A stretch of DNA of 64,000 bases. It comes from a virus (lineage: Duplodnaviria > Caudoviricetes). The first letter of the stretch is position 1. Each line of letters starts with the position of its first letter. Shown here piece by piece: positions 37,541 through 61,915 of this stretch. The stretch spans positions 32,001-96,000 of IMG/VR virus record IMGVR_UViG_3300003155_000119; one strand, given 5' to 3'. Both the position numbers and the translations under genes were made by a program. The notes below the pieces were generated by a model. That model made no database searches. It worked only from the letters and a program-made list of their open reading frames with translations, and had not been told where the DNA came from.

Positions 37541-38041
37541 TTATTCCCAGTTGTATTCAGAATTTTCTTTTAATACTTGACTATATGCAATTAAAATAGC
37601 ATCTGCTTCATCATCATTAACGTCTTTCCCAAATTTATCTTTTACAAATTTAATGTCTGCGGCTTTCAGTTCTGCACGTTTTATACCGCGTCCCGTATGT
37701 ATCCCGACGGCAGCCCGCCACGAATTAGGCATTATATATTCTATTTCAATACTAGGAAAATTATCATGTACCATTATTGCTATTGCTCCTTGTAACCACA
37801 TAAGAGCTTTATGTGTTTTAATGTTTCCTTTAGTATTTTCTGGCAATACTTCTTCTAAAATAATTTTATCTATATCAGGATTCTATCTAATTGCTTCCTC
37901 TATTGAATCAACCATCTTATGAATTCTTTTAATTAAATCAGAAGAGGTCGCGCCACAAAATCCAGAGTACACTAGCTTCTATCCATCAAAGACTGCAATT
38001 CCGCTCATCTTGGAGCTTCCATCAATTCCCATTATTTTCAT
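37541..38041 (-). CDS. RuvC-like Holliday junction resolvase, 166 aa (2 TAG)
   Basis: MKIMGIDGSSKMSGIAVF...IILEE...NDDEADAILI catalytic motifs. TAG at codons 21 and 53. Confidence 0.88.
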
Positions 38042-38060
38042 ACTATCACCCCCTGTATAT

Positions 38061-38089
38061 AGTGTAGCACAAAAAATATTATAAAACAA
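38061..38089 (-). promoter_or_regulatory. SigmaA-type promoter
   Basis: TTGTTT-N17-TACACT with TG extension. Confidence 0.5.
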
Positions 38090-38093
38090 GAGC

Positions 38094-38127
38094 AAAAAGA
38101 AAAAGAGCTGAAACAAATCAGCTCTTT
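38094..38127 (-). terminator. Rho-independent terminator after dUTPase
   Basis: AAAGAGCTGA/TCAGCTCTTT stem with a T-tract on the minus strand. Confidence 0.75.
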
Positions 38128-38147
38128 CATATCTTTCATTTATTCAA

Positions 38148-38579
38148 TCACTTAACTCCAGTAGAACCAAATCCGCCTTCTCCGCGTTCAGTATCTTCCA
38201 AAGAATCTACTAGTTGAAAATCTGCGGTTACATAAGGCATTATAATAAGTTGACAAATTCTTTCTCCACGCTGAATCGTTTGCGGCAAGTCCGTGTCGTT
38301 GTGCATTGGGACTAGTATCTCTCCACGATAATCTGAGTCCACCACGCCGATGCAATTCGCCAACCGCAGGCCGCGTTTAGAGGCAATACCAGAGCGAGGG
38401 AAAAGTCCGCCAAAACATCCGCCAGGAAGTTCCATTGCAAGGCCGGTATGAATCATTGTAGTGCAGTGGGGTGCAATCAGAATATCATCAGACTCGGCCG
38501 CATAAATATCATAACCTGCGGCACATGAGCTTCCGCGAAGAGGCATTTGCGCATAATCATTTGTAAATTTAACTTTCAT
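38148..38579 (-). CDS. dut: Trimeric dUTPase
   Basis: AGYD, PRSG, GVVDSDYRGE, ICQL and RGEGGFGSTG motifs. Confidence 0.95.
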   Translation of the reverse strand: MKVKFTNDYAQMPLRGSSCAAGYDIYAAESDDILIAPHCTTMIHTGLAMELPGGCFGGLFPRSGIASKRGLRLANCIGVVDSDYRGEILVPMHNDTDLPQTIQRGERICQLIIMPYVTADFQLVDSLEDTERGEGGFGSTGVK

Positions 38580-38585
38580 CTATTG

Positions 38586-38834
38586 TTATTTCACCTCATA
38601 ATTGATATCGACTTCATTCAGAGGCTCTTTAAGTTCGTTGAAGGCTTTATTTAAGCTAACTTTAAAGTAGGTATCGACGATTTCACCTTTCAGTTTTATA
38701 TCTTTCTTCTCTGTTGTATACTTCAGCAAATCAAATTTATCGTCTGTTTTTGCGTCTTGAATCAACTGCTCTGCCTCTGCTTCACTGTCTACTCGATAAA
38801 TTTCAGTTGTACTAATCAAAAATTTCATAATCAA
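38586..38834 (-). CDS. Hypothetical protein
   Basis: Track ORF, overlap-coupled within the operon. Confidence 0.7.
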   Translation of the reverse strand: MIMKFLISTTEIYRVDSEAEAEQLIQDAKTDDKFDLLKYTTEKKDIKLKGEIVDTYFKVSLNKAFNELKEPLNEVDINYEVK

Positions 38835-39103
38835 AATACCTCAATTTCTAAATTATTTTTATTATACGTTGCCATTTCTTTTTCTTTAATCTTTTGAACA
38901 ATTTTTTCTGTAAATTTCTTTGGGCCTACAATAGTTATTTTGCTAAAATCTTCATAATGGCCGTCTGTAGTAATGATACCAAAAATATCGTTTGGTATAT
39001 TAGAAACTGTGCTATTTACAGAAGCAAATTTATGACCATTTTCGTATCCCTCGACTTTCTGTGTCATAGCAAAAGGTTGAATCATTACAATAATCTTCTT
39101 CAT
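38831..39103 (-). CDS. Hypothetical protein
   Basis: Track ORF with ATGA and TAATG overlaps. Confidence 0.7.
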   Translation of the reverse strand: MKKIIVMIQPFAMTQKVEGYENGHKFASVNSTVSNIPNDIFGIITTDGHYEDFSKITIVGPKKFTEKIVQKIKEKEMATYNKNNLEIEVF

Positions 39104-39561
39104 TATATCTCAATTACTCCTTCGTTGTAAGGAAATAGATAATAACATAGCATACCTTTTTCTGCGTCCTTCAACCAAATTTCTATAGCATAATTATCTT
39201 CTGTATTTTCTATACTATAGACTTTTCCTCTGTTCTTTAAACAAATCCTTAATTCATCACAAGCTATAAGAATTGGTTCGTGAAAGTCTAAATAATTGCG
39301 AACATTGAACAAGGTATAGTTATTATCTTCTTTACACAATAGCATAAAGTAACAATTATCAAAATCTTCTTTATTTATTCTCTATTCAATATTTTTTTTG
39401 AAGAAAGGGGCCACAATGTAATCTAAAGCATCATATAGATTTTCATCTGTCATAGGATTTTCTGTCTATTCTATTATCTATTTATTTAAATCATATAGAG
39501 TTGCTCCGCTTATTTTTGTTTTTTCACTTTTCTAAAACTCTTTAATTTTATTATTTGTCAT
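39103..39561 (-). CDS. Hypothetical protein, 152 aa (4 TAG)
   Basis: RBS AAGGAG before ATG 39561. TLYDLNK(Q)II is in frame with track ORF 39103..39345. Confidence 0.7.
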
Positions 39562-39589
39562 AGGCTTTGCTCCTTCACCTTTTTATTTT

Positions 39590-39618
39590 ATTATAGCATA
39601 AAATAATATTTTTAACAA
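39590..39618 (-). promoter_or_regulatory. SigmaA-type promoter
   Basis: TTGTTA-N17-TATAAT with TG extension. Confidence 0.65.
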
Positions 39619-40256
39619 ATATTTTCTTTCTCTTTATAAAGAGCAAGTCTTTCTTTTATTTTCCCTAGCGTTATTTCTTCAATCTTTTGCTTTAATATAT
39701 TATCTATTTTGTCAAAATATTCTATAGCTATTGGATTTCTGCTAATAGTTTGAAGTCCAAAGTATTCTTCTGCTGTTTTTCTACACCATATGGCCTCTTG
39801 TAGAGTTTCAAAATGTGGAAAATAAAATCTTTTTTTATTAAAATAAAAATCTACTGTATAGCTATGCCAGTTAGGATGGTATGTTATTCCTCTTATTTGA
39901 GTTTTACTTTCCTTTCTAACATTTACATTCTAAATATTTTTCAATCTAGTGACAATTCTTAAATTTGATTTTCTATTATCAAAAGAATTGCTGCTTATGT
40001 GGTCAATCTCACACCCATCTGGAACTTCTTTGTTTAAAATATATTTATGTAAATAAATTTGTTTTTGTCCATTTTTGCTTTGTCCAGTAACAGCGTATAC
40101 TTTATTCTTTTTATGGCTAGTTCTCCAGTGATATTTTTGAACTCTTTCGATATCATCTGTATCAATTATAAAATCATACCAGATATCTTTATACTAAATT
40201 TTTAGTATGCAATACTCTTCTTGTTGAATATATTGATTTGAATCTTTTTTATACAT
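39612..40256 (-). CDS. Free-standing HNH-AP2 homing endonuclease, 214 aa (2 TAG), absent from ORF track
   Basis: IYLHKYI...EIDHISSNSFDNRKSNLRIVT...IRGITY...FETLQEAIWCRKTAEEYFG. Confidence 0.85.
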
Positions 40257-40734
40257 TATTTGTTAAAACTCCTCGCTTAGTTATTCTTTGATTAGTAGAC
40301 CCTCTAAGTTTTAAAGTTATATCTCGCTTTTCTTCAAGGTATGGACCGTCAATTAAAATATCTATCAAAGGAAGAATTGTTTTTTGTTCCTCATTAAAAT
40401 TTTCTAATACATACCCAGTCCATAAATATATCTTTATATCAGGATAAGTATTTCTTACTTTTTTAACGATATAAATAGTATTATTTAAATTTTGTGCGGC
40501 TAAAGGCTCGCCACCTAGAATAGAAAAACTCCTTGCTATTCCGTTTTCTCTTAATGCGGTGATAATCTTACTAACTAATTCATCTCTGTCGATTTCTTGA
40601 CCACCATTAAAATCCCAAGTTTCTTGATTGTGGCACCCTTTGCAGTGAATAGGGCATCCTTGGCACCAATAAGAAACACATATCCCATTTTCACAATCTA
40701 CTATATCATTGTATTTTAAAGCTGCATATCTCAT
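40249..40734 (-). CDS. nrdG: Anaerobic ribonucleotide reductase activating protein
   Basis: Radical SAM CxxxCxxC (GCPIHCKGC), GGEPL, LRGSTNQR. Start placed at MRYAAL. Confidence 0.93.
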   Translation of the reverse strand: MRYAALKYNDIVDCENGICVSYWCQGCPIHCKGCHNQETWDFNGGQEIDRDELVSKIITALRENGIARSFSILGGEPLAAQNLNNTIYIVKKVRNTYPDIKIYLWTGYVLENFNEEQKTILPLIDILIDGPYLEEKRDITLKLRGSTNQRITKRGVLTNNV

Positions 40735-40747
40735 TTTTTTATTTCTC

Positions 40748-42904
40748 TCACCAATCAATATGAAGAACTCGTTCTTTAATTTCTTCTGTGCGACCTTGAT
40801 TCCAGAAATTAGTTCCGATGTATCCACAAGTCCGTCTAGCAACACTCATCTTATCTCGGTCCCGATTTCCACAGTTTGGACACTCCCAATACAGATGACC
40901 AGGTTCTCCTTTGATTTTAATCTCGCCGGAATAGCCACAACATTGACAATAATCAAATTTGCTATTTATTTCCGCATACATAATATTATCATAAATGAAC
41001 TTAAGAATTTCCAGCACTGCGGGAATATTATTACTCATATCTGGAACTTCTACATAGCTAATTGCGCCTCCCGGAGAAAGTTTTTGAAATTCAGATTCTA
41101 ACTTCAATTTAGTAAAAGCATCAATTTTTTCTCTTACATTCACATGATAAGAGTTGGTGATATAATCGTGGTCGGTTATTCCCGAAATAACCCCAAACCG
41201 CTCTTTTAAACATTTTGCAAATTTATAAGTAACACTCTCGATAGGAGTACCATAGACGCTATAATCAATATCCTCTTCTTTTTTCCATCTGGCGCACGCA
41301 TCATTTAAGGTTTGCATTACGGATAAAGCAAATTTTTTACCTTCTTCTGTGGTATGAGAGACACCGAGCATCGCCATTGTACATTCATAAAGCGCAGCAT
41401 ATCCTAGGCTGATAGTGGAATATCCATGATAAAGTAGTTCATCTATTGTATCATCTTTATTTAGTCTTGCTATTGCCCCGTTCTGCCATAAAATAGGAGC
41501 TACCTTAGATGATACGCCTACCAGTCTATTATGCTTACATTTTAATGCCTTATGACATAATTCAAGGCGCGAGTCAAGAATAGTCCAAAATTTATTCATA
41601 TCTCCTTTTGAACTTAATGCCACGTCAGCTAAGTTAATGGTAACGACACCTTGATTGAATCTTCCGTAGTATTTATGTTCACCCTCTTTATAGTTTAATG
41701 CATGAGCATAATTCTTAGTGGTGCGGTCTGTAGTTAAGAAAGAACGGCATCCCATGCAGGTGTAAATATCTCCGCCTTTCAACTCTCTTTCGACTTTATT
41801 AGAAATATAATCAGGAACCATTCTTTTAGCTGTGCATTCTGCGGCTATTTTCGTTAAGTAATAATACTTACTGTTTGGATAAATATTAATTTCATCAAGA
41901 GCATAAATAAGTTTTGGAAAAGCTGGAGTGATATATACTCCTTTTTCGTTTTTCACTCCTTTAATGCGTTGGCGAAGAACCTCCTCGATAACAAGAGCTA
42001 AATCCTCTCTAGCCGGACCGTCGGGAACTTCATTAAGATTCATATATACAGTAATAAATGGCGCCTGTCCATTTGTCGTCATCAAAGTAATAATTTGATA
42101 TTGAAGAGTTTGTACGCCAGCACTAATATCATTTTTTACCATCTGCTCTATCATCGCATCTGCCGCAGTCGGATAATCTTTTTTAAACTTTTGACGAGAG
42201 CTCTCAACAAACGGACTCAAATGAGCTAGACTAATAGATTGACCTCCGTATTGGCTAGATGCGACTTGGGCAATAATTTGAGTGGCAATATTGCACGCAG
42301 TAGAAAACTTATGCGGCTTGTCTATTTTTGTTTTACTAATTATAGTTCCATTTTGCAACATATCTTCAAGATTAATTAAGCAACAATTATAAATAGGTTG
42401 CAATATATAATCTAAATCATGAACATGAATAAGACCTGTATCATGAGCTTCTACAACGTCTTGCGGCAAGATTCTACGTCTTGCAATGTCAGTAGACACT
42501 GCGCCTGCTACATAATCTCTTTGAGTTGTAACTAATTGAGCATCCTTATTAGAATTTTCTGTCATCCAATATTCATTAGAATTATTTACTATTTCATCAA
42601 TAGTTTTATCGATGGTGTTCTGCCTAGCATTATCTCTTTGTTTTCTATAAAGAATATATGCTTTAGCAACGTCTTTTCTCTTTAGACTCATTAAGCCGCG
42701 CTCTACATAATCTTGTATTTCTTCTACGCTCAATTCGTCTTTAGAGGTAGAAATAGAAGCAATATAATCTGCAATATTTTGAGCCTTTATGCTTGCATAA
42801 TCAGTAATTTCGCCATCAACGACCAGAAAAGCTTTTAATATAGCATTTATAATCTTCTCCTTGTTAAATTGGACTATACGTCCATCTCTTTTTAATACAT
42901 TCAT
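40748..42904 (-). CDS. nrdD: Class III anaerobic ribonucleoside-triphosphate reductase
   Basis: N-terminal ATP cone, NCC, MGCRS, zinc CxxC pairs and glycyl radical RTCGYI. Confidence 0.96.
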   Translation of the reverse strand: MNVLKRDGRIVQFNKEKIINAILKAFLVVDGEITDYASIKAQNIADYIASISTSKDELSVEEIQDYVERGLMSLKRKDVAKAYILYRKQRDNARQNTIDKTIDEIVNNSNEYWMTENSNKDAQLVTTQRDYVAGAVSTDIARRRILPQDVVEAHDTGLIHVHDLDYILQPIYNCCLINLEDMLQNGTIISKTKIDKPHKFSTACNIATQIIAQVASSQYGGQSISLAHLSPFVESSRQKFKKDYPTAADAMIEQMVKNDISAGVQTLQYQIITLMTTNGQAPFITVYMNLNEVPDGPAREDLALVIEEVLRQRIKGVKNEKGVYITPAFPKLIYALDEINIYPNSKYYYLTKIAAECTAKRMVPDYISNKVERELKGGDIYTCMGCRSFLTTDRTTKNYAHALNYKEGEHKYYGRFNQGVVTINLADVALSSKGDMNKFWTILDSRLELCHKALKCKHNRLVGVSSKVAPILWQNGAIARLNKDDTIDELLYHGYSTISLGYAALYECTMAMLGVSHTTEEGKKFALSVMQTLNDACARWKKEEDIDYSVYGTPIESVTYKFAKCLKERFGVISGITDHDYITNSYHVNVREKIDAFTKLKLESEFQKLSPGGAISYVEVPDMSNNIPAVLEILKFIYDNIMYAEINSKFDYCQCCGYSGEIKIKGEPGHLYWECPNCGNRDRDKMSVARRTCGYIGTNFWNQGRTEEIKERVLHIDW

Positions 42905-42960
42905 TGTTTTTATCCTCCTAATTAGATAATTATTTTAAGGTTGATAACTTATACATAATA

Positions 42961-43014: not shown

Positions 43015-43027
43015 TGTAGAATTTATA

Positions 43028-43915
43028 TTAACTATTTTTGACCAATTTTATCAAAACTCTTTTATATACATTCTTACCATTGCAAATGAATTGACCGTCT
43101 GAAATGCCAGCTCCGCCATCACCGGTTAAATCATGGTCATGACCTATTAATTGGAACTGCTCTGGACAATATTTACTTAAGAAAGTAACAGGGACTCCCA
43201 TTAGTCCGTCATAATCGCAAGGAATATTAACTACTTTAGATACTTCAATAGCATCATAGTTATCATATTTAGGATATTTCTCCTCATTACCATAATATTT
43301 TTCTTTTAGCGGGATGCGGCAATGCCTTTTTTCATTATCTAAATTTGTATACCAAATGATATTACCAAATTTCTTTTCTGTGCGGTCTGGCGTTAAAAAC
43401 ACTTTAGGGCTAGTATTTCCGAACCATACTTGGTTATTTTTAAAGAGCGGGAATATTTCTTTATAGGTTGCAGCATTCATATTACCTATAACAAGAAACT
43501 TCTTATTATATTTTATAAGTTGCGCGATATATTCGCGGAAGAGGCTAAATGGCGGATTAGTGATAACGAAGTCCGCACTTTTAAGTAATTCAACGCATTC
43601 TTCTGAACGAAAATCCCCATTGCCGCACAGTTGAGTCCTTACTTCTTTGCTATTGTTATCAAACTCTGTTTTATATGCCGTTTTATTTAATGACAAATTT
43701 GTTGCAATGATTTTTTTTATTCCTAGCTCATAAAAATTCTCTTTAAAATATTTATAAAAATTTGAATACTCTACATCATCACAATTACAATAAATAATTT
43801 TATCTTTAAAATATTCTTTATAATTAGTTAATTCTTTTTCTATATCTTCTAATCTTGTATAAAATTCATCATTTTTAATGCGCTTGGCCGCAGTTAGATT
43901 TTTATTATCACTCAT
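43028..43915 (-). CDS. Adenine DNA methyltransferase, EcoRI-methylase family (orphan)
   Basis: KNDEFYT, IYCNCDD, GDFRSEEC, ITNPPFSLFREY. Confidence 0.9.
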   Translation of the reverse strand: MSDNKNLTAAKRIKNDEFYTRLEDIEKELTNYKEYFKDKIIYCNCDDVEYSNFYKYFKENFYELGIKKIIATNLSLNKTAYKTEFDNNSKEVRTQLCGNGDFRSEECVELLKSADFVITNPPFSLFREYIAQLIKYNKKFLVIGNMNAATYKEIFPLFKNNQVWFGNTSPKVFLTPDRTEKKFGNIIWYTNLDNEKRHCRIPLKEKYYGNEEKYPKYDNYDAIEVSKVVNIPCDYDGLMGVPVTFLSKYCPEQFQLIGHDHDLTGDGGAGISDGQFICNGKNVYKRVLIKLVKNS

Positions 43916-44498
43916 TATTTATTCTCTCCTTTGTCCAGTTAACAAAAGATTCATAGAAGTTAAGTCCTTGTAAAGGCAATTCATAAATCTTATTTGGATG
44001 TTTTTCTATATATTCCTTTTTTGCGCAATTAAATTCTACGTCATTAAAATCTTGCTTGTCCGCTAAAAAGCGTCTACAAATTTCATCACAATTAGGATTT
44101 TTTTCTCTTCTTAATGAGCGCATTAATCTATCTTTATCACTAGCTGAAACCTCAATAGCCATTAAATCAAAATGTTCATCATTGTCTTCAAATAGTTTTT
44201 TCATCCAATAGAGATTAAATATTCCTACATTAATCTTATCATTCTTAATAGACTCTCTTGCTATTGCATAAATCCAATTATTATAATCAATAGGCCAAAG
44301 GAAATTATCATCCCTTAAAATATCTTTCTTTTTCTTAAATAGGTAATCAATACCGTCAATTTCCTTTTCGCGCGGCGGTCTGGAAGTAGTTAAAAGAATT
44401 TTGTTTAAATCAAAGTTATTTGATAGGTGATTCAGAAAAGTATCTTTCCCTGCCGCGCTCATTCCATAAATAGCTAAAATTTTAGGCTTTACGCCCAT
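43908..44498 (-). CDS. gmk: Guanylate kinase-like protein
   Basis: GMSAAGKDT P-loop and TTSRPPREKEIDGIDYLF. Confidence 0.85.
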   Translation of the reverse strand: MGVKPKILAIYGMSAAGKDTFLNHLSNNFDLNKILLTTSRPPREKEIDGIDYLFKKKKDILRDDNFLWPIDYNNWIYAIARESIKNDKINVGIFNLYWMKKLFEDNDEHFDLMAIEVSASDKDRLMRSLRREKNPNCDEICRRFLADKQDFNDVEFNCAKKEYIEKHPNKIYELPLQGLNFYESFVNWTKERINNE

Positions 44499-44504
44499 AT
44501 GGCA

Positions 44505-47500
44505 TCATCCTCTCTCATGCTCAATAATAATATCTTGACCATTGTTAATTACATCTTTGATCCTATAAAGTTGATGAGTTGAAGTATGCGAATAAGACTT
44601 AGCTCTAAAAGTGTCATCAATTCGATACCCAGTTACCATGATTTTCGTTCCTCTTGTAAACCAACTCTTATCAATAACTTTCTTAGTTCCATCTAATTGA
44701 ACTTCACTTAATTGACGATTATAATTCGCATAATATTCTTTAGTGAATTTAACATCTACGACACCTGTAGTAGTTAAAATCGAAACCGTTGAACGAACAT
44801 CATTCTTGCCAAGAACTGTTCCAATAATTCTTGTCGTTTCATAGATAGGAATTTCTTTTCCTTTCCTCTTGAAGAATTTTTCTGCTTTAGGAACGGTAGG
44901 AAGTTTATTAAAATCACTTATTCCATATTTAGAAGTATTAACTTTTGCCAATTCATGTTCGTGATAGTAAAAACACATACTTTCCATTTCCCATGCGGAA
45001 ACAGTTCCTGCTGCGTACTTATCCCAACATTCTTTAAATAATAAATCATTTAATTCATTTAATACTCTCTTTTGATTTTCTTTTAACCATTCTCTAATAT
45101 TATTCATCATTTTTGAATAAATATTATCCCATTTGCTTTGCGGCAAAAGATTTTCTCCGTTAATGATAGTTAAGTCATCTTGAGAGAAGTGCTCCTCGTA
45201 GAATAGAAAATCGTCCTCTTTTAACAGATAATATTCCTTGCCTTCCTTTTGATTCTTCAATTTTTTATTAAGCAAGAATACTTGCCTTTCAAGAGACAAA
45301 GAATCTGGAATGAGATTTTTCTGAATCAATATGCTCAGATTTTGTAGAGTAAGTTTTTTCTTTGGCTCACAAATCTTTGAGATATAATAAGCCATGATTG
45401 CGCGGCGAGGGGCAGATGGATTAACTGATTTTGCCCAGACTTCATCAGTTTCATCAAAAGCTCCTGACTTAATAAGAGAAATCATTACCGTTTTATTAAG
45501 AGGACATTTAACTAAGAAATCATTTAGACTCTTATATTGTCTGTTCTTAATAATATTCCCAATAACATCTCCGCCTACTTTATTAAGAGCATTCATCGCA
45601 TACAAAATTCTATTATTTGCCGCGTCTGGTTTAAAACTATAATCTGATTCATTGATATTTACAAGAGAAACAGAAATACCGTTTGAAATGATTTTACCTA
45701 GCGCCTTGGCGATTTTAGCATAGTCTGTTTGCCCTTCTGACTCCTCCAATGACTCACTATCAACAATAAGACAAGCCGTATTCCAGTATATAGGATTCCA
45801 ATGGGTTGCGAGGTATGCTGTTTGGAACCCGATAAAAGAATACGACATCGCGTGTATGTCGGAGAATGAATATCCCAGCTGAGTGGATGCGATATTGTCC
45901 CAAACATAATTAGCCATCGCAAGAGAGGACGCCTTTTCGAATACTTCAGATTTCAACTCTGCGATTTTATCCATGCGTTTCTTGCTTACGACTTTTCGTG
46001 CTGAGTTGGCTTGGGCTAGGCTAAACCCGCAAATATCGGAATCCATCAAAGTCCGCATTAGCTGTTCTTGTGAAATGCCAATACCATAACTTTTACCAAC
46101 ATATTTATTCAGTGCTTTTTCCTCTTGTTCGGTCAGACCATATTTTTTCATTTCTTTATGGACTAGTTCAGAATTCTTCTTAAATCGCACATACTTTTCC
46201 ATTGGTGGCTCACCACCATCCTCCGCCATAAGGCGAATCAGTCCATTGGTATTACTTAATTCCTGCATATTCTTAGGACGCACTTTTTTTGCGCCTTGAC
46301 GACCAATAGTAGAATCCAACTGAAACAGATTAAGACTAGAAGCATTTTGAATTGTGTTCCAAGTATCTTTATCATCAAGCGGCAAAACGTCAGGATGAAG
46401 ATATTTGTTATACAACTCGCGGAGACTCAATCCTTGTTCAAGAATTCCGTCCTTCTGCATCATAAGAAGCGTCTGAACGAACATGTCTTGCACAGAGGTG
46501 ACCAAGGCGTCCAATTTGGTCAGACCACAAGCTTCGTCCATATGCAAATCATACTGCGTTACAATTTCGCCGCTAGTCGCGCGCATAAAGCAGCAATGTT
46601 CATATGGATCATTCTCAAACATTACGACACCAGACGCGTGTATGCCGCGAGATTTAGTTAACCCCTCCACGCCCATAATAATATCCAACAATCCTGGGTA
46701 CTGGTCTACTTCATTAATAAAAGCGGAAATTGGTTTTCGTCCTTTCTCGTCATTTCCGTACACCACATCTCGTATCGACCAGACAAAGCCTCGTTCTGAT
46801 GGAATAAGACTAGATAAATATTGCGCAATATCAACGTCAATTCCCTCTGGGAACTCGTCACTTCTATAGCCGCGACAGGCCGTGAGTACCGCAGACTTAG
46901 ATGATTCTGTGCCGAAAGTTGCAATCATAGTACATCCAAGATTTTGTTTCTCTTGTTCACTAAGACTGGCATTCAAATATTTCTGACGTTCGTCTTTAAT
47001 ATTTTTGATAATTAGAGGTCTCTTTGAAGGTGCTAAATCCAGGTCAATATCACCAAGTCCATCCGTATCACGATTCATATAGCGGAAGAACGGGAATTCG
47101 TATTGGATAGGGTCGAGCTGCGATATACCTAACAAATAATGATTCAATGCGGCACAAGCACTACCTCGACCTACACCAACCGTCGAACCGCATTCCCAAA
47201 ACATATCAATGTAATGCTGCAAAAGAAGCGGGTATCTAAACATATTAGTATTTAATTTATCACCAACGATTTTCTTAACCTCAGCCTCTTCTTCAAGTTC
47301 ATCTAAATACTCTTTTTTATTAAGTAAATCTTTTTCCGCAAGTTTGTTCCAACATTGATTAATCCAATTCCGTTCAACTTTATCATCAGAATTGAACATT
47401 CTATCTAACTCTTTATATCCAGTTTCTTTCTTTTGTTTTGGATAATCAGAAATTTCTACTTCAGGAATTTGTTGAGAATGTTGCAAAGAATAATTTTCTA

Positions 47501-51771: not shown

Positions 51772-51800
51772 ATTATATCATTTTCCTTGTTTTTTGTCAA
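51772..51800 (-). promoter_or_regulatory. Consensus sigmaA promoter
   Basis: TTGACA-N17-TATAAT, directly after a hairpin terminator (51808-51839). Confidence 0.85.
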
Positions 51801-53652: not shown

Positions 53653-54747
53653 TCATAACATTATCCTTTCTTTAAGTAATTTCATAAATATATCTTTTCC
53701 TTTGTCTATTGGACTGTCTTTATATCCTAATAAGCCTCTCCTATCAAATATAAAGCTAATTTGAAAGAAAGATTTATATTTATCATTTATTTTCTTTAAT
53801 TTATTAGTCCAAGTTTTATATTCCTCGTCTCCGACTTTCTTGAATTGCCTGTCAAAAGCTACCAGTATTTCGTTCACACCAAGAGCAGAAAGCAAATTGG
53901 CTTGATAGTTAAGTAAATTACTTCCGCAACACGCAACACTAATATCACTCTCGCGGCCAAAAAAAGTCCTATAAGACAAAGTTGCTTTTTCAGATTCAAA
54001 TATAATTGCCTTTTTAATAATTTGTATGTTTTGTTTGCTATTGTTCAGATTGTATAAATTAAAACCTAATGGGTGAGAATAAAGTACTCCATTTAAATAG
54101 GCAGGACGATATTTACCATTAGATTCTTCCTCTTTAATAAGCGTTCTTTCTCTTATTCCGATTAAGCGATTATCTATGTCATAATGAGGAATTACTATTC
54201 CTTGATTAATTGGGTCATAACAGATATTAGCTTCTTTAATTGCAGTACTTGAAATACCTTCTCTTTCCCAAGGTATGATGCGCGGTCTAGGTAAAAAATC
54301 TAATATACTAGTATCATAAATTTTTAGATTAATTCTTTGCTCTTGCGGCAGGTCAGCTCTATCATTATATTGTTTTAATATGTCCCAGTCTGGTAGACTT
54401 GATGGTAGTTCATCAAAGTCTAAATGTTCCTCTTCTATTGCTAATCCAAAATAATCTGCGGTGAAAGTAATTGCTTTGTTTAGAGGAATTTTTTTTACTT
54501 TCATAGTAAGCTGGTATATATCAAAGCTAGGTTCCTCGCATCCAGTGTAACAATGGAAAAGGTGAGTATTATCATAATAATATAACTTATAACTAGCTTC
54601 ATCATAGTGGGCAATGTCGTTATGACAGATAGTCCTACTAACGAAACTATTGCCTTTGTCATACCTCGGTTCTCCTCCTAAATATTCAACAAACTCAAAT
54701 ACTTGTTCTATAGAGAGTTCGTTCTTCAAAGTATCTTTATTAAGCAT
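53653..54747 (-). CDS. DNA primase
   Basis: Zinc-binding CH..CYTGC, TOPRIM FESEK and AFD. Adjacent to DnaB. Confidence 0.85.
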   Translation of the reverse strand: MLNKDTLKNELSIEQVFEFVEYLGGEPRYDKGNSFVSRTICHNDIAHYDEASYKLYYYDNTHLFHCYTGCEEPSFDIYQLTMKVKKIPLNKAITFTADYFGLAIEEEHLDFDELPSSLPDWDILKQYNDRADLPQEQRINLKIYDTSILDFLPRPRIIPWEREGISSTAIKEANICYDPINQGIVIPHYDIDNRLIGIRERTLIKEEESNGKYRPAYLNGVLYSHPLGFNLYNLNNSKQNIQIIKKAIIFESEKATLSYRTFFGRESDISVACCGSNLLNYQANLLSALGVNEILVAFDRQFKKVGDEEYKTWTNKLKKINDKYKSFFQISFIFDRRGLLGYKDSPIDKGKDIFMKLLKERIML

Positions 54748-54749
54748 TA

Positions 54750-57377
54750 TTACTTTTCATCCTCGTCCTCAAAATTCATAACTTGGATATTTGTCTCCTC
54801 AATAGGCAATAATTCATAATTATAATTCGTTACAAATATTGGATTAATGCGGCAAGTACTTCTATCTGCTTTACACCATAACAAAACACCTTTCCATCTA
54901 CCGCGTCTATTTTTATATATACTTATTTTCATTTCAGGCATTTCAATACCTAGTCTATTTACAATATCTATTAATGCCTCTTTATCTCGTTCAGTTGTAT
55001 CTAGCGCAATCATGCCAATATCCACTCTGTCTGAAATCGCTTTCGATCCTCTCAACAGGTTCTGGTCAAAAACGTCTGCGTCGGCCCATCCGCCATTTAA
55101 CTGTGTGCTAGTCATGATGAAGACACCATACTCATTACATAAATCCTTTAGCCGCGTACTAATCATAAAGAGTACATTATCTTCACGCAGATTTGCGACT
55201 CTAGCTTTGCTACTAACTTCACTCAGAATCTTCATTGACGAATGCAAGTAATCAAAAAATACATATTTAGTATTCCAATCATGAACAGCAAATTTAATTG
55301 TATTTTCAATATCTTGCAACGAAAAATCTGGCAAGTATTTGATATGAAGAGGAGAACTCTTTAACACATTAGCAGCGTAAAGTACACGCTCTTCTTCATT
55401 ATCTTCATACTTCGCGGTCAAAATATGCTCTTCATCTACTTCCGCCAAAAATGCGAGAATTGCAGTTTGAACTTCATCTAGTCTTTGTTCTGTTGTGATG
55501 AATAAAGTAGACTCTTTAATTCCGTTTTTTCTCCATTCTCCTTTAGTCTTATCATACAAAGTGTCGCAAGCCATATTACAAGCATCAGCCACCATCATTC
55601 TTGTATTATGCGTTACAATGAAATCATTGGCTAAAAACAAATGGTCTTTATTGTCTACAGTAAAACAAGTCATATTAGTATATTCATTAGTAGGGTAAAT
55701 ATCTACAATAGGAAGGAAGTCTTTCTTTTCTTCTCTCTTCCCATTGTTTGCGTACGCCTCTGCGATAACTTTTTTTCGTTTTAAAGAGAAAAGCATTGGC
55801 TTGGTAGACTTACAACATTGAATACGAACAGTATACCCAACTCCTGTAGTATATTTCTCTTTTCTTTTGTCTAATATAACGGAAGTCATCATTCCTAAAC
55901 TTCTGCATAATTCTATTACATTGTCTTTCAGCTTAGAAGAAATTGTATAATAAGAGATTCTTCCCCTCTCATCTATATGTCCGTCCGTATCCAATAAACC
56001 CGCAAGTAATGCGTATCTCTGATAAATGTCGCTCATTAAGTATTCTTCTGGAATAAATTTATCTTCTGATTTAGTATTCCAGAGTTCTGGATAATTACAT
56101 AGAATTTCTTCTACCCACAAATTATGCTTAGGATTTTCAATCGGTTTAAATGTATAACTATAGTTAAAATTACTATTTTTATGCGGGACGATATTTTTAC
56201 CTAGTTCTTTAGCGACTCTATTTGGCAATTCATCATCTGCGCTACTAAAAGAAAGACCTTTTTGACTAGAATCATACCTAAAACTACCATCTCCTAGTAA
56301 AGCGCCCATAGCATAAGGACTTGGATATAACTTTTTCGTAGTATAAGCTACTGGCTCATTCATTCTAACAGCAAATCTATATCCTGTGTCTTTAAATCCT
56401 CCTCTCTCTTTAGCTCTTTTATAAATTTCTTCAGTAGATTCTACTTTTAATAAATTACGTTTTCTATCATATCGGTATTCCCATAGATGGTCTTTACAAC
56501 ATTTTACGGCCCTGCCATCTTTAAAGACAACTTCCCATACTTGTTTTAACTCTGATTGAGGATGAATAGCAAGAACTTCCGTTGGGTTGCCGTCTTGTCC
56601 AAATAAATAATCTCCAGGTCTAATATCTCCTACTCTTTTCCATCCGTTGGGCGTAGGAATTAGAGTGTCATTTGGAAGAGCTTTTCCGACTCCAGTACCG
56701 GCGGAACGAAGATAAAATTTCCCGAGACGAGCTCCGCGCGTAACTGTATTAATTAAAGTGCCGTAAAGAGGAGAACCAACCTCTGGCCGCGTCTTTAAAC
56801 TCTCAATTAAGTCGTCAATACCTTCCGCGGCTTGGTGAAAGTCTTTTTCTGTTATATTAGCATATTTTAATTTAATTTGAATAATTTTATCATCAATAGA
56901 ATCAGCAATGTCACTTAAACTTGTATTATCCAGCCATTCTTCTTGCTTTTGTTTTTTCTTTACATCAAATACATTATCTACGTCATATAAATCAGAAATA
57001 TCTAGTCCTACATCATCATACATACGAAGTAAAGTAAATTTCTTCATTCTATTGTAGTAATAAGTAAAAGCTGAAGGCTGAGCCATCTTGCTTACTTGCT
57101 CTAACCACTTTGCTCCGTTATTAGCTTTATAAATCCCATAATTCTTTGGCCGCGTAGACAGGAACTCTTCAATAGTAGATACATCTATTTGACGAGCACC
57201 TAATTGAAACAAATTATAGATAGAACCAAAAATTGTTTTATGAAAATCTTCTGTAAAGTCATCAAGAGAAAAAGAATACTTATCTGATTGCTCAATAAGA
57301 GACGGATTTAAATATACACATCCAATAACTTGCATATTTGCTTGAATGTCTACAATTTTATTTTTAGCTCTTGCCAT
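54750..57377 (-). CDS. dnaB: DnaB-like replicative helicase with intein
   Basis: SAGTGVGK[intein]TR, FITTEQ, FFDYL, TQLN, LRGSKAI.D, KNRRG. Confidence 0.92.
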   Translation of the reverse strand: MARAKNKIVDIQANMQVIGCVYLNPSLIEQSDKYSFSLDDFTEDFHKTIFGSIYNLFQLGARQIDVSTIEEFLSTRPKNYGIYKANNGAKWLEQVSKMAQPSAFTYYYNRMKKFTLLRMYDDVGLDISDLYDVDNVFDVKKKQKQEEWLDNTSLSDIADSIDDKIIQIKLKYANITEKDFHQAAEGIDDLIESLKTRPEVGSPLYGTLINTVTRGARLGKFYLRSAGTGVGKALPNDTLIPTPNGWKRVGDIRPGDYLFGQDGNPTEVLAIHPQSELKQVWEVVFKDGRAVKCCKDHLWEYRYDRKRNLLKVESTEEIYKRAKERGGFKDTGYRFAVRMNEPVAYTTKKLYPSPYAMGALLGDGSFRYDSSQKGLSFSSADDELPNRVAKELGKNIVPHKNSNFNYSYTFKPIENPKHNLWVEEILCNYPELWNTKSEDKFIPEEYLMSDIYQRYALLAGLLDTDGHIDERGRISYYTISSKLKDNVIELCRSLGMMTSVILDKRKEKYTTGVGYTVRIQCCKSTKPMLFSLKRKKVIAEAYANNGKREEKKDFLPIVDIYPTNEYTNMTCFTVDNKDHLFLANDFIVTHNTRMMVADACNMACDTLYDKTKGEWRKNGIKESTLFITTEQRLDEVQTAILAFLAEVDEEHILTAKYEDNEEERVLYAANVLKSSPLHIKYLPDFSLQDIENTIKFAVHDWNTKYVFFDYLHSSMKILSEVSSKARVANLREDNVLFMISTRLKDLCNEYGVFIMTSTQLNGGWADADVFDQNLLRGSKAISDRVDIGMIALDTTERDKEALIDIVNRLGIEMPEMKISIYKNRRGRWKGVLLWCKADRSTCRINPIFVTNYNYELLPIEETNIQVMNFEDEDEK
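55605..56681 (-). mobile_element. Class 3 intein with LAGLIDADG endonuclease (359 aa)
   Basis: Starts ALPNDT and ends VTHN/T. HLW, MTCFTV, THN. LLGDG and LAGLLDTDG blocks. Confidence 0.9.
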
Positions 57378-57384
57378 ATAATAT

Positions 57385-57930
57385 TTAATTATCCCCTTTC
57401 TCGAACGAATCTATATCTAACATCTTAATATTTCTTATTGGTTGCGGCTCAAGGATTTTTATCTGCTCTGACTCTTGTTTATAATTATCTAAAGCGTTTT
57501 TATTATTTACATAAATTTTTTGATAATAGCTCTTTGCTTCCTGATAATATCTAGCTACCACATTTATGTGTCCGCCTAAACGAAAACGATCTATCTGTTT
57601 TACCTCAAATAAATAAATAAGAGTTTTATGAATCCCGCTTAGAGAGAAGCCCATCTGTTGAAACTGTTTAATTTCTCTTCCAATAACCGGCCAATTTGGA
57701 TTCATTCCTTTGAACGCTTCATGAATGTACTGTCTTAAAGTGTTCATATCAGTCTCTCGTTTCTCTTCTTCGCTTAAATTGCGTATCCGATGTGCATGAA
57801 ATTTATCATAACATTTTTTATGGCACCAACGAGAATTGCTGATTTGAATAATTCCTTCACCAGATTTTTTTATGCCTTTGCCGCAATACACGCAATGAAC
57901 TAGTTGATTTTCACTTGTCGTCATAAGCAT
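57385..57930 (-). CDS. Zinc-finger protein preceding DnaB (possible replication accessory factor)
   Basis: CVYC...HKKC. Function inferred from position. Confidence 0.65.
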   Translation of the reverse strand: MLMTTSENQLVHCVYCGKGIKKSGEGIIQISNSRWCHKKCYDKFHAHRIRNLSEEEKRETDMNTLRQYIHEAFKGMNPNWPVIGREIKQFQQMGFSLSGIHKTLIYLFEVKQIDRFRLGGHINVVARYYQEAKSYYQKIYVNNKNALDNYKQESEQIKILEPQPIRNIKMLDIDSFEKGDN

Positions 57931-57945
57931 AACCTCCCTTTATAT

Positions 57946-57974
57946 ATTATACCATAATAAAAGAAAAAAGTCAA
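57946..57974 (-). promoter_or_regulatory. SigmaA promoter
   Basis: TTGACT-N17-TATAAT with TG extension. The -35 overlaps a terminator stem. Confidence 0.8.
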
Positions 57975-58012
57975 ACAGATAATTCTCTTAATCTGCTTGA
58001 CTATTGTTTTAA

Positions 58013-59236
58013 TTAATTACTTAGATATTCATCTTTAATTTCGTCTACTATTGTTTTAATTAACTCTACCTGTTCGGGAGTTGAGTCAGAAACTTTCTTA
58101 CCTTTTCCAAGGATTTTATTTACAATAGCAGTAATTCTTGGCCCATAATATTCTTTGTCTTTCTGCATCAAAGTTGATACTATTTCATTGAAGTCTGCAA
58201 TCAGACTATCATAATTAAGAACTTCTGCTTTGACCGCAACATTTCTTTCGTCAGTGACGAATTTATTATCATTCATCTTGGCTTCTTTGTCTATTGCTTC
58301 GTTCACAGCATCTACTAATGCGGAATATGTAAAATCAATAACGGGAGGAATATACTTAAATCTACATCCAGTATCAATCGTTCCGTCTTGAGAGCGAAGA
58401 ACTAGTCTTACTTTAGGAGCTCCATCCTCTCCTTTATACTTTTGTGCATATCCGTATATATCCGCGGCATTCTTAGCAATATCATTAAAACTGCTTTGAC
58501 ACGAAGGCCCAATCTGAAGAATTTCCTCACCATTAACTTTTACAATGCGTTCCTTGTCATGTGAAATGAATACTAGTGCATAACCAAGTTGCGTTATTGC
58601 TCTGCACGTTTCCTCGAATTCGCGTTTCATTTGACTATAGCCGCCGCCATAGGGAACTTCTGCTATTTTTTCAACTGAGTTCTGAGCGCATATATATTTT
58701 TCACACAATGAGCCAGCAATATCGATAGTATCAATGATTACTGTTTTAAATCTTTCCTTGACCGCAGGCTTCTTCAAATCTCTTAGTACCGCTCTCATTT
58801 CGGACCAAGACGTAACATCTTGCGGGATTACCTTCGGAATTGCATTATATCCTACTTCAAACGCCAGCAGGATGGGGTCGGGGAATTGTGAAGCGAGTGT
58901 AGTTTTACCTACTTTCAATTTGTTATCCTAAAGGCTTTTTATCCTTTAGCTCTTATACTTCCTATTCGTATAAGTTCGGCATAGCTTTCACCCTATAATA
59001 TACAGGGGTGCAGTCTCTTGGATATATTATTTCAATATCTATGCTCTGCGCGTGTAATAATTAATTCTTACTTCCGCTCGGGTTAGCATCTCAGCTTTCC
59101 CGCTCTTACTGCATTTTAACTACCTAATTACTTAGATAGTGCCCAAAGTTTTAGGCCCACCATAAATGTAAACTATATACCCGCTCAAATCCCTACTAAC
59201 CTTATGAGGTTGTAGGGCTAATAAGTCAATCGCCAT
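58013..59236 (-). CDS. AAA/Sak4-like ATPase, spliced (exons 59236-59153 and 58915-58013), 328 aa
   Basis: RBS AAGGAGG. IYGGP|KVGKTT Walker A is restored by splicing. IIDT, FISH. Confidence 0.88.
58916..59152 (-). ncRNA. Group I intron 5 (237 nt, no ORF)
   Basis: Exon ends in T and the intron ends in G. Guide ACTTTGGGC pairs with GCCT|AAAGT. P7 variant GCAGAGCATA/AAGCTATGCC. Confidence 0.88.
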
Positions 59237-59253
59237 ATATTAGCCCCTCCTTA

Positions 59254-60204
59254 TTAAAAATCAAAACTAGTGTCCATCTTAGGCTGAATCTTTGGATTCA
59301 TAGAACTAGCTTTCCGAGCTTCGTATTCCTCCTTATCCCGACGAATACCAGCCAGCTTAACCTCTCTATCTTGAACCGCTTTCTTCAAATCGTCTGCGGT
59401 CATAATTGATTCATCACCAAATTCATACGGAACAGTAATCATACCAGTAATCAGCCATTCGCGCTGTTTATTTTCGTACGTCTGTACCTCAGGCTCACCA
59501 AACGCAGATTCAGTGACGCGTTCTGTCTTAATTGTCATGCAATTAATACGACCCCAAACATTCGTATAAGTAGGATTGCTCACACTAGCATCCATGTCCT
59601 CAAAACACGCCATTCCCTGCTCATTACGGCAGACGAAAGTGACGGGAAGCAATTCGTTCTTGAAGTTAAAGACAGCTCCGCCTACACGAACAAAATCTTT
59701 GTCAATGTTCTTTTCAGGATCCGCTTCTACCCTATTAACTTTATTAATCAGCATATCCATACTGAAAGTATTTCTCTTTTTCGGCTCAGGAAGAGAACCA
59801 TTAATCATGTTCAAGAAACCGCCATCAATGCGAATCGCTGAAACGACTTCGTTTGTACGATTAGAAATGAATTCATTCAATTCGAGTGCGCCACTGACAG
59901 AAACCTTAAACGCGTTCTCCTTGCCGCCCATAATCCAAGTCTTATCTGGATTCTGGATAATCTGCTTTAGATTATTAAAAGTATCTTTCTTCTTATCAGC
60001 AGTTACATACATAAAATGGACAGTAATGACATTCATTCCATCTTCATCAACCGCAATATCAAGATTACCAGAAATGAACTCTTTACCATAATTTGCAGAG
60101 TTTGCGTTCTGCACAGTTTTAACACTCAAACCAATTCGCGGGTCTTGATTATTCTGATACACATAACCAGCAATTTTTACTTCGTTCTTACTTCTCTTTT
60201 TCAT
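59254..60204 (-). CDS. Putative single-stranded DNA-binding protein
   Basis: Two beta-rich OB-like halves and an acidic/aromatic tail (DTSFDF). Lies next to the ATPase. Confidence 0.65.
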   Translation of the reverse strand: MKKRSKNEVKIAGYVYQNNQDPRIGLSVKTVQNANSANYGKEFISGNLDIAVDEDGMNVITVHFMYVTADKKKDTFNNLKQIIQNPDKTWIMGGKENAFKVSVSGALELNEFISNRTNEVVSAIRIDGGFLNMINGSLPEPKKRNTFSMDMLINKVNRVEADPEKNIDKDFVRVGGAVFNFKNELLPVTFVCRNEQGMACFEDMDASVSNPTYTNVWGRINCMTIKTERVTESAFGEPEVQTYENKQREWLITGMITVPYEFGDESIMTADDLKKAVQDREVKLAGIRRDKEEYEARKASSMNPKIQPKMDTSFDF

Positions 60205-60292
60205 ATATTCCTATTTTCTCCTTTATAAAAACATTCTATTCTTTATCATTATCATTACTGTAATTATATTATAACATAATTTTTCTTAATAA

Positions 60293-60967
60293 TCATTTTT
60301 CTCTTGGCGGCTTGCGACAACTCTTTTTATTCTCAGGACAATAGCCAAATATCTCACATTTTGGAACGAAATATTCATCAACAATAGTAGCCCATTCTGT
60401 AGAATAATTAGCTAAGGCCGCCTTTATATCCTCCATCAGTTCCCTGTATTCCCAGTACGCCCTGGCGCACATTCTTTGATGACTCATATCAATAAGATTG
60501 CGCAGATTAGTTCTTACTACTACTTTTGTCGTCATATTAAGCGGTAAGATACCAGACGCGTCTTCATTTTTAATACCTAGCTTTTGCAATCTATCATACG
60601 CATCCAAAATATCTTGCATGACTGCGTCATATGTTCTACAAGCTTCCTCATTATTAACAATAGAATAAGGTGTGATGTAATCAAAATTTTTATAATTAAT
60701 GTACCTCGTTGAACTCTGCAAACGAGTCGGCATCCCGCCTATATGAGTGTAAAATTCTCTAATAACTTTCGCGGAATAACCATCTAAAATCATATAAACT
60801 TGCGGAATTTCAAGAACGCGGCCGTGATTATTTTGTAGACACTCAATCCCACGATTATAGTTTTTAGCATCTGAACTAATATTAGACCCATAACAAATTC
60901 CGGCATAGTAGCCCATTTGAGTAATAGGATTAGTCATTGTATCTACTTGAATTCGTACTTGCCCCAT
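60293..60967 (-). CDS. thyX: Flavin-dependent thymidylate synthase
   Basis: HGRVLE, RLQSSTRY, EDA..ILP, NLRNL, QRMC.RA.WE.R. Confidence 0.88.
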   Translation of the reverse strand: MGQVRIQVDTMTNPITQMGYYAGICYGSNISSDAKNYNRGIECLQNNHGRVLEIPQVYMILDGYSAKVIREFYTHIGGMPTRLQSSTRYINYKNFDYITPYSIVNNEEACRTYDAVMQDILDAYDRLQKLGIKNEDASGILPLNMTTKVVVRTNLRNLIDMSHQRMCARAYWEYRELMEDIKAALANYSTEWATIVDEYFVPKCEIFGYCPENKKSCRKPPREK

Positions 60968-61915
60968 TTAGCTTCCTCCTTGTGTCATGTTGTAACCAAA
61001 TTTATCTGTTTGATAAAGTAATATATAAAATTTTTCTCTTTCGTTTAATTGCTCTTTAGAACACTGTTCTATCAATTCAAAAGCAAAATTCCAAACACCA
61101 TATTTTTGCATTGAGTTATAGAGTATATTGGTATGCGAAGCATCTATTCCTAGACCGCATTTTATATGTTGCTTTATTCGGTCTTGAATATTAACACTTT
61201 GGCCTATATAAGACTGTTTTGTTGACAGATTGGTTATCTTATAAATGCCGCAGACAATAGCAGAGCCATAGATTCTATTACATAGTTCTGTTGTATTCCT
61301 TTGAAAGTATTCGCTCCATATCAATTTACTTATTGCTCGCTCATTCCTAAAAGAAGGTCTTAACTCCAATAATCTCTTTACATCAGCTAAATCTTGTTCA
61401 GAAATAGTTAATTTATAAAACTCTTCTTTTTCTTCTATTTCTCTTTCTCTTAACTGTGCGGCCTTAGCTGCGGCGAGTTTTTGACTAATATCTTTGATAT
61501 TTGATTCTAGTCCAGACTGTTTTTGAGCTAGAGCCGCGCATTCATTTTCAAGTTGTTCTTTCTTTTGTTCATACTCTTTATCTAAATTATTATAGTTTGC
61601 TGTTGCTAAATTTATTGAATCAGTTAATTGTCCTAATTCTTCTTCTTTCTTTTCTAACTGCTCCAGTATCTCGTTATAACTATTTTCGTTCTTCTCTATT
61701 AATTCTATATATGTCTCAGAATTCTTTTTTAACTTTTCGTTTATTTGTTCTATTGATTTTTTTCTAATATTTGCTTTATCTATTTCTTCTTGAACAGAAT
61801 TATACGATTTTTTTATATTAGAAAAAGTGATTGATTGTGACCATAGATATAGTAAATAGATTGAAACAAAAACACAATAAGTAAAAATAAATCCAAATAT
61901 TATTGCCTAGCGCAT
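60968..61915 (-). CDS. Membrane-anchored coiled-coil GIY-YIG nuclease, 315 aa (TAG at codon 3)
   Basis: RBS AAGGTGG, then ATG CGC TAG, a hydrophobic helix, a coiled coil and GIYKITN...YIGQS. No other stop in frame. Confidence 0.8.

Follow-up and report, generated by a model that had tools for sequence, protein, structure and literature searches.

Gene content and TAG codons of the replication arm

We analysed a 64,000-nucleotide stretch of phage DNA (the window; Caudoviricetes), covering bases 32001-96000 of a viral contig of 113,778 bp with a CheckV completeness of 73% (IMG/VR record IMGVR_UViG_3300003155_000119), and followed the in-frame TAG codons of its replication genes. The rightward arm (window 1-37507) yields long reading frames only when TAG is taken as a sense codon, and a single protein of 2921 amino acids (aa) contains 88 TAGs. 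The leftward replication arm extends from window 37541 to about genome position 109,200. TAG frequencies are 16-21 per 1000 codons in the late arm, 1.5-2.0 in the replication arm overall and 0 in replisome genes. Genes were called as greedy open reading frames (ORFs), with no trained gene finder, and each TAG is given by the lowest window coordinate of its codon. The replication-arm genes within the window are:

37541..38041 (ORF 37541-38116), minus strand: RuvC-like Holliday-junction resolvase of 166 aa, counted from an ATG at 38041; TAG at 37979 and 37883
38148..38579, minus strand: dUTPase (PF00692, E=6e-33); no TAG
39103..39561, minus strand: conserved hypothetical protein, 152 aa; TAG at 39532, 39478, 39466 and 39382
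39612..40256, minus strand: free-standing HNH endonuclease (PF13392, E=3e-7); TAG at 40194 and 39930
40249..42904, minus strand: NrdG and NrdD (anaerobic ribonucleotide reductase); no TAG
43028..44498, minus strand: EcoRI-type adenine methyltransferase and guanylate-kinase-like gene; no TAG
44505..48425, minus strand: DnaE-type DNA polymerase, 1306 aa, with PHP, DNA_pol3_alpha, finger and HHH_6 domains; no TAG
48394..49158, minus strand: free-standing GIY-YIG endonuclease, 254 aa (PF01541, residues 8-97); TAG at 48667 (codon 164)
49228..51525, minus strand: SF1 helicase with LAGLIDADG intein; no TAG
51889..53652, minus strand: RecJ-like exonuclease, 587 aa; TAG at 52372 (codon 427), inside DHHA1
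53653..57377, minus strand: primase-like gene and DnaB helicase with LAGLIDADG intein (DnaB 54750-57377); no TAG
57385..60967, minus strand: hypothetical protein of 181 aa, AAA_24 ATPase, SSB-like protein of 316 aa, and ThyX; no TAG
60968..61915, minus strand: membrane GIY-YIG protein, 315 aa (PF01541, residues 222-309); TAG at 61907 (codon 3)
62497..64000, minus strand: NAD-dependent DNA ligase, 654 aa in the genome, running past the window end; no TAG

An original prediction had proposed that TAG codons of this arm fall almost only in nuclease genes, where they would act as a safety catch. Its counts were all reproduced: two TAGs in RuvC, two in the HNH gene, one each in the GIY-YIG, RecJ and membrane GIY-YIG genes, and four in the hypothetical gene. 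The genes that it listed as TAG-free are so (dUTPase, NrdG, NrdD, the methyltransferase, the guanylate kinase, DnaE, both intein-bearing helicases, the primase-like gene, AAA_24, the SSB-like gene, ThyX and ligase), and the other 16 genes at 37541-61915 contain none. One more TAG, the twelfth in the arm (48426), precedes the DnaE start proper (48425). Within the window, TAG is found in 5/5 nuclease genes vs 1/17 others (Fisher p=2.3e-4), and the nuclease genes, with 20% of the codons, hold 7 of the 11 TAGs (binomial p=0.002).

Pfam matches agree with the gene names. The RuvC match is marginal (PF02075, E=1.2e-4, 22.4 bits vs a cut-off of 22.2, residues 3-113); the N-terminal catalytic Asp motif MGIDGSS is present, both TAGs lie downstream of this first catalytic Asp, and the orthologue family spans 14 genomes. 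RecJ contains, in order, DHH (70-218), DHHA1 (374-454) and RecJ_OB (483-576; 22.7, below the cut-off of 27). The HNH gene has no orthologue among the relatives and forms a singleton in clustering; for this reason it is likely mobile.

The rest of the arm, beyond the window, served as an out-of-sample test. GyrA, GyrB and ligase carry no TAG there, nor do RNase H and two metallophosphoesterases; a third GIY-YIG gene, with a NUMOD-like domain, carries five. For the whole arm, TAG-bearing genes number 6/7 among nucleases vs 4/31 among others (p=4.8e-4). A lysis cassette stands between RNase H and one metallophosphoesterase, both TAG-free:

genome 100969-105357 (L002:6969-11357), replication-arm strand: holin-like gene, M15 endolysin (2 TAGs) and two small genes (3 TAGs each)

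Taken as a rule, nuclease function did not survive this extension. RNase H is TAG-free in 6/8 genomes, the LAGLIDADG endonuclease domains of both helicase inteins (SF1 and DnaB) and the PHP domain of DnaE contain no TAG, and the TAG-bearing genes of the arm include endolysins, a collagen-like protein and genes of unknown function. Nuclease function is a good but inexact predictor of TAG.

TAG codons are read through

Domains and homologues continue across the TAGs. The RecJ_OB domain of RecJ follows its TAG, and homologues of the free-standing GIY-YIG protein (48394-49158), standard-code ones included, align through codon 164. The membrane GIY-YIG gene has a good, well-spaced ribosome-binding site (RBS) 6 nt before its ATG and no alternative ATG, GTG or TTG for about 180 codons, and its catalytic domain is strongly conserved downstream of up to 11 TAGs. 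Alignments and domain matches thus show the TAGs in these genes to be coding and read through. That they are instead true stops or lie outside coding regions, through chance or faulty annotation, is hardly credible. Start-codon choice does account for some TAGs in long ORFs, such as codon 6 of DnaE here and N-terminal extensions of NrdD in relatives; yet the continuity of domains and alignments, the conserved GIY-YIG domain and the fact that no gene of the replication arm terminates in TAG contradict an artefact, and the statistics of TAG enrichment and codon share speak against chance.

The same gene families carry TAG in related phages

We scanned IMG/VR with DnaE, which gave 26 loci; ten whole or long contigs were fetched and their ORFs clustered reading through TAG. 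In each ORF, TAG counts began with the first residue that aligns with a homologue from another genome. The genomes share a common plan, with 1-4 TAGs per 1000 codons in the arm on the DnaE strand and 10-22 in the opposing arms. In all 14 recoded genomes or loci, which represent about 4-5 independent lineages rather than 14 because members of one subgroup (the Glu group, below) are close to each other, TAG is more frequent in nuclease-class arm genes (5.6-29 per 1000 codons) than in other conserved arm genes (0.4-3.0), as the original prediction would have it. The excess is about 2 to 60-fold, typically about 10-fold. Totals for the replication arms are:

free GIY-YIG genes: 64 TAGs in 5483 codons; 21/22 members with TAG
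membrane GIY-YIG: 66 TAGs in 2846 codons; 8/9 members with TAG
RuvC: 17 TAGs in 916 codons; 5/5 members with TAG
RecJ: 27 TAGs in 5917 codons; 9/10 members with TAG
free LAGLIDADG: 9 TAGs in 1098 codons; 2/4 members with TAG
DnaE: 5 TAGs in 19,942 codons, mostly start-codon or split-gene artefacts
helicases: 2 TAGs in 10,289 codons
primase: 1 TAG in 3697 codons
GyrA, GyrB, ligase and SSB: 0 TAGs in about 21,000 codons

When relocated copies are included, all nine RuvC orthologues of recoded genomes carry TAG (2-8 each), and membrane GIY-YIG orthologues carry 6-11 each. Matches to the GIY-YIG catalytic domain contain TAG in 20/27 cases in recoded genomes vs 0/10 in standard-code relatives. In the distant relative phAss-1, RecJ has four TAGs and the membrane GIY-YIG gene eight, with none in DnaE, helicase, primase, SSB, AAA_24, NrdD, GyrA or GyrB. 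A different behaviour is seen in the hypothetical gene at 39103-39561: its four TAGs are specific to this lineage, the codon-28 TAG facing Gln in most relatives and the other 15 orthologues having no supported TAG.

GIY-YIG domains number 0-5 per relative. With a nuclease domain, a DNA-binding module and patchy presence, the free-standing GIY-YIG and HNH proteins would fit the description of homing endonucleases. Many relatives have dnaE split by an insert of about 1 kb with a GIY-YIG gene, often TAG-bearing (G003:4134-9272; G005:44230-49355; G006:65948-71061; G016:21682-26644; L019:1917-7086). The dnaE gene of the phage studied here is uninterrupted, with a GIY-YIG gene adjoining its start.

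TAG has two apparent meanings

TAG in this genome faces Gln at 40 of 78 conserved columns in the alignment to relatives, and Glu at 13; because Gln predominates at these columns, the alignments support a glutamine assignment, which holds for this phage. Across the Gln group (G000, G006, G004, G012, G002) the figures are 153 of 340 sites for Gln and 42 for Glu. A sister clade (the Glu group: G001, G003, G005, G010, G013, G016, L025) has TAG facing Glu at 194 of 282 conserved sites and Gln at 18, and appears to read TAG as glutamate. The division is unchanged when judged only against standard-code relatives, and we found no report of TAG-to-Glu in the phage literature searched.

A tRNA(CUA) is present in relatives G001, G002, G003 and G005, and G004 has a copy with an insert; G006 has no clear one. 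In the Glu group, the D-loop of the tRNA(CUA) is shared with the tRNA-Glu(UUC) that the phages themselves encode, and in G005 the acceptor stem too. The G002 tRNA(CUA) resembles tRNA-Gln(UUG). The Glu-group genes lie at:

G001:88856-88931 (G001 = loci L031-L037)
G003:65805-65883 (G003 = loci L038-L044)
G005:124239-124314 (G005 = loci L045-L051)

Gln-group tRNA(CUA) genes have an insert of 14-20 nt after the anticodon (G002:20170-20259, locus L069; G004:45449-45547, locus L054), and ARAGORN detects the G004 copy only with introns allowed.

In a tree of RecJ, the Glu group forms one clade (100/100), sister to four standard-code relatives with moderate support (89/94). Gln-group genomes are divided between two further lineages, and one of these also contains a standard-code relative. 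The same families are thus TAG-rich in lineages in which TAG arose from different codons, which points to a common cause rather than inheritance and argues for independent TAG gains in these families.

TAG share separates three classes of gene

We expressed TAG use as the share of TAG in TAG plus cognate codons. Shares in the two groups are:

late genes: Gln group 0.295, Glu group 0.164
RuvC: Gln group 0.354, Glu group 0.396 (p=1e-4 above late genes)
membrane GIY-YIG: Gln group 0.263, Glu group 0.255
free GIY-YIG: Gln group 0.345, Glu group 0.077 (below the late level)
RecJ: Gln group 0.071, Glu group 0.090
replisome genes: Gln group 0-0.017, Glu group 0-0.003

By this measure there are three classes: late-like, intermediate (RecJ) and excluded.

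Neither constraint nor position accounts for the classes. Relaxed selection, which the original prediction had named as the alternative that could overturn it, is rejected, as the mean identity of a family does not track its TAG density. TAG-rich RecJ (mean pairwise identity 0.57) is as conserved as TAG-free GyrA (0.59), ligase (0.55) and SSB (0.57; range 0.53-0.59 for GyrA, GyrB, ligase and SSB). Identities of the membrane GIY-YIG protein (0.45) and of RuvC (0.39) are comparable to those of hyp181, the guanylate kinase and the metallophosphoesterases, all TAG-free. Position along the arm was likewise discarded: the distal 2.7 kb contains 8 of the window's 11 TAGs, but every genome has RecJ and the membrane GIY-YIG gene in the middle of the arm.

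TAG sites turn over. The 27 TAGs of RecJ occupy 19 distinct alignment columns, those of the membrane GIY-YIG gene 46 and those of RuvC 14, and the TAG sites of this genome are almost never TAG in relatives. Because the sites turn over, we read the pattern as one per gene; TAG richness belongs to the gene, not to the site, as far as these alignments reach. Six of the 19 RecJ columns fall in the first 16% of the alignment, an N-terminal bias that is not significant (rough binomial p~0.06).

Transcription context

We placed the TAG-bearing genes among candidate transcription signals, all on the minus strand:

38101..38128, minus strand: terminator-like hairpin and T-run between dUTPase and RuvC
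42989-42961, minus strand: sigma70-like promoter before nrdD; consensus match only
51772..51800, minus strand: best sigma70-like match in the arm (12 of 12, with extended -10), on the 3' side of RecJ; consensus match only
61946..61965, minus strand: terminator hairpin and T-run immediately 5' of the membrane GIY-YIG RBS

The start of RecJ immediately follows the stop codon of primase, with a gap of 0 here and of -11 to +80 in four relatives that have primase upstream. Judged from this arrangement, RecJ should share the primase mRNA. Adjoining a TAG-free primase gene without a gap, full-length RecJ would have to await TAG suppression; where one mRNA holds both TAG-free replisome genes and TAG-bearing nucleases, any difference in timing must be translational.

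The original prediction had the TAG-bearing genes transcribed from host-type promoters. Matches to the sigma70 consensus do exist, the best on the minus strand being at 51800, 42989, 57974 and 62507, but in our scans for sigma70 promoters and terminators promoter-like matches were no commoner than in shuffled sequence, and of their output we considered the few best matches and the hairpins. A terminator hairpin immediately precedes RuvC here, and G006 has one in the corresponding position. The relocated RuvC genes of G001 and G005 each have their own perfect TTGACA-17-TATAAT match but still contain 5-6 TAGs. A putative late-type motif, TTTGGnCAAA with a -10 box, has its sole good minus-strand copy in the replication arm at about 43046, upstream of nrdD and not before TAG-bearing genes.

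The hairpin before the membrane GIY-YIG gene is fixed in position in 9/9 genomes (including G001-G006, G010 and G016) and varies in sequence; termination and control of translation are both possible roles. The protein combines a membrane helix at its N-terminus with a long coiled coil and, at the C-terminus, a GIY-YIG domain that is well conserved. A sequence search of the PDB gave only the I-TevI catalytic domain (E=0.007). Its gene is single-copy, syntenic and clade-wide, also present in phAss-1, and followed here by ThyX without a gap. Being single-copy and syntenic, it bears little resemblance to a mobile homing endonuclease.

A candidate delayed-translation class within early operons

The distribution of TAG suggests a gene class, set inside early operons, whose members would be fully translated only after the code switch. 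We lean towards this reading, with some reserve. Products needed before suppression (replisome, topoisomerase, ligase, nucleotide metabolism) would be kept TAG-free. Embedded among them would be a subset at or near the late-gene TAG rate: RuvC, the membrane GIY-YIG protein, the free homing endonucleases (GIY-YIG and HNH, with LAGLIDADG in relatives) and, outside the window, the lysis cassette; RecJ would belong with an intermediate rate. On early transcripts the frames of this subset would stop at TAG, as early as codon 3 for the membrane GIY-YIG gene, and full-length products would appear only once a suppressor tRNA is active. Membership would be set by a product that is unwanted early (late DNA processing, selfish endonucleases, lysis) and not by nuclease chemistry. 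The probable benefit would be that DNA-cutting enzymes stay off until replication is under way. Timing, the role of the suppressor tRNA and selective benefit we infer from codon placement and gene order.

A stronger form holds that the amber lock is adaptive and convergent: RuvC, RecJ and the membrane GIY-YIG gene would have been loaded with TAG independently under Gln and Glu reading, since untimely activity is harmful, be it before replication, in a lysogen or in a non-permissive cell. We put this forward only tentatively. Convergence and the excess of RuvC over the late baseline favour selection, as far as codon counts can indicate it; if the lock is real, stop-codon recoding would be a general containment device for toxic enzymes, beyond a lysis timer. 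One half of the safety-catch idea has stood: TAG-bearing genes do lie among TAG-free early genes, and the same families recur in relatives. The other half, disarming, looks the same as tolerance at the level of sequence.

Several observations count against a translational delay, an adaptive lock or both. No tRNA genes, suppressor tRNA included, were found in the 113.8-kb, 73%-complete contig. RecJ of G004 and RuvC of phAss-1 are TAG-free, and the phAss-1 replication arm itself encodes two suppressor tRNAs, so that any delay there could be short. The GIY-YIG and RecJ genes here have a single TAG each, after the catalytic domains, which makes for a thin lock. Conservation of TAG positions, proposed as a check, was not found. 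RuvC, the membrane GIY-YIG gene and Gln-group free GIY-YIG genes stand at, not above, the late TAG share, RuvC exceeding it only in the Glu group; with shares at the late baseline, a passive equilibrium would look alike. Lastly, RuvC and the membrane GIY-YIG gene lie behind terminators, and transcription may already separate them from early genes.

Weighing tolerance and dosage

Many of these points would be expected if TAG simply drifted in (CAG to TAG here, GAG to TAG in the sister clade) wherever a gene is dispensable before the switch and was purged from genes needed early, at no benefit. The nuclease bias would then be a by-product, the resolvase, RecJ and selfish endonucleases simply being the non-early genes of the arm. 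We regard such passive tolerance as possible, though we would not presume it. Equilibrium-like shares and site turnover fit it, subject to the limits of codon counts: the TAG shares of RuvC, the membrane GIY-YIG gene and Gln-group free GIY-YIG genes equal the late baseline, and TAG sites are hardly shared. It also accommodates the arm's non-nucleases with TAG, among them endolysins, a collagen-like protein, transporters and hypothetical genes, and the four TAGs that the gene at 39103-39561 acquired in this lineage alone. However, RuvC rises above the late baseline, both in the Glu group (0.396 vs 0.164) and when pooled (0.46 vs 0.265, p=1.5e-4). Drift must further accommodate the TAG richness of the same families in lineages with different TAG meanings, the stably intermediate share of RecJ in both groups, and many poorly conserved small arm genes that are TAG-free (hyp181, fam48, fam50), all of which would have to be needed early.

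Incomplete suppression could instead keep these enzymes scarce throughout infection, with no delay. Low amounts of nucleases and homing endonucleases typically suffice, and the terminator hairpins before RuvC and the membrane GIY-YIG gene would also lower expression. We nevertheless consider dosage attenuation improbable: the most abundant virion proteins are the most TAG-rich (88 TAGs in 2921 aa; 12.5-21 per 1000 codons in late-arm genes), for which late suppression must be efficient, and under efficient suppression the single TAGs of RecJ and GIY-YIG here would attenuate little.

Comparison with known systems

Borges et al. (bioRxiv 10.1101/2021.08.26.457843) described a recoded stop that regulates phage late and lysis genes, with early replication genes free of it. 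In their TGA-recoded Agate phages a group I intron endonuclease in an early gene is preferentially recoded, and its in-frame stops were proposed to hold it back until late; the core idea is thus already published for one intron endonuclease. Our data resemble theirs in TAG-free early genes, TAG-rich late and lysis genes, and the same family test of recoded stop vs standard codons. They differ in that the gated set gains vertically inherited RuvC, RecJ and membrane GIY-YIG genes, in the phage family concerned (DnaE/RecJ, SPbeta- or phAss-like) and in recurrence under both Gln and Glu. Resolvases and exonucleases go unmentioned in the text of Borges et al. Unlike the Agate case, we found no group I intron around the endonuclease genes; Rfam gave no match at gathering score for window 37000-64000 or for the dnaE inserts of G006 and G005. 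What is new is the place of cellular-type RuvC and RecJ and a clade-wide membrane GIY-YIG protein in the class, its stability over a family-level clade, and two meanings of TAG.

T4 offers a functional parallel. Translation of I-TevI, I-TevII, I-TevIII, segB and mobE is delayed by RBS-sequestering hairpins, and seg43(25) has a stable hairpin just upstream of its RBS (PMC2988022), which the membrane GIY-YIG hairpin resembles. These T4 homing endonuclease genes too lie in early or middle transcripts and are silent until late, but there mRNA structure and late promoters cause the delay, whereas here an in-frame stop would be lifted by suppression.

A more distant relative is phAss-1, of the proposed Phassvirus group of TAG-recoded gut phages (PMC10607447). 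DnaE is 34-36% identical (34% to the phAss-1 polymerase by tblastn) and the contents of the arm are common to both; the differences are the TAG-free RuvC and the suppressor tRNAs within the replication arm. The phAss-1 paper leaves its interrupted DNA-processing genes unspecified and draws no regulatory conclusion (PMC10607447). SPbeta-like phages share a DnaE-type polymerase, yorL (38% identity over 99% of its length), with an adjacent RecJ-like exonuclease, yorK. In contrast to the phage studied here, their GenBank annotations give DnaE and its neighbours intact under the standard table, and no gating is apparent.

Recoded phages are common in gut viromes, and the purpose of recoding has been argued mainly from lysis and structural genes. 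The exception seen here, located within early operons, is reproducible and specific to particular genes, and it allows a sharper test of that purpose. The present survey names three concrete proteins for a comparison of TAG and CAG alleles. It also bears on annotation, as standard-code gene callers will truncate or split these nuclease genes.

Further observations

Matches in a bacterial genome collection are phage-sized contigs in bins of metagenome-assembled genomes, with inconsistent taxonomy. Related phage genomes L092-L099, on contigs of 125-142 kb, were binned as Bacilli, Lachnospiraceae, Anaeroplasmatales, Methanobrevibacter and Gastranaerophilales; they are probably mis-binned, and their host labels are thus unreliable. 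Within the record's first 20 kb, none of ten leftward genes that lack TAG matched an integrase or repressor.

Two relatives have a transfer-messenger RNA (tmRNA) beside their tRNA arrays (G002:673-985; G003:67803-68080), with tags ending in MAA. The presence of tmRNA is of note in phages whose early mRNAs hold many premature TAG stops. Finally, the tRNA array of G001 includes an ARAGORN-predicted tRNA with the anticodon UUA (G001:90222-90296), which would read TAA.

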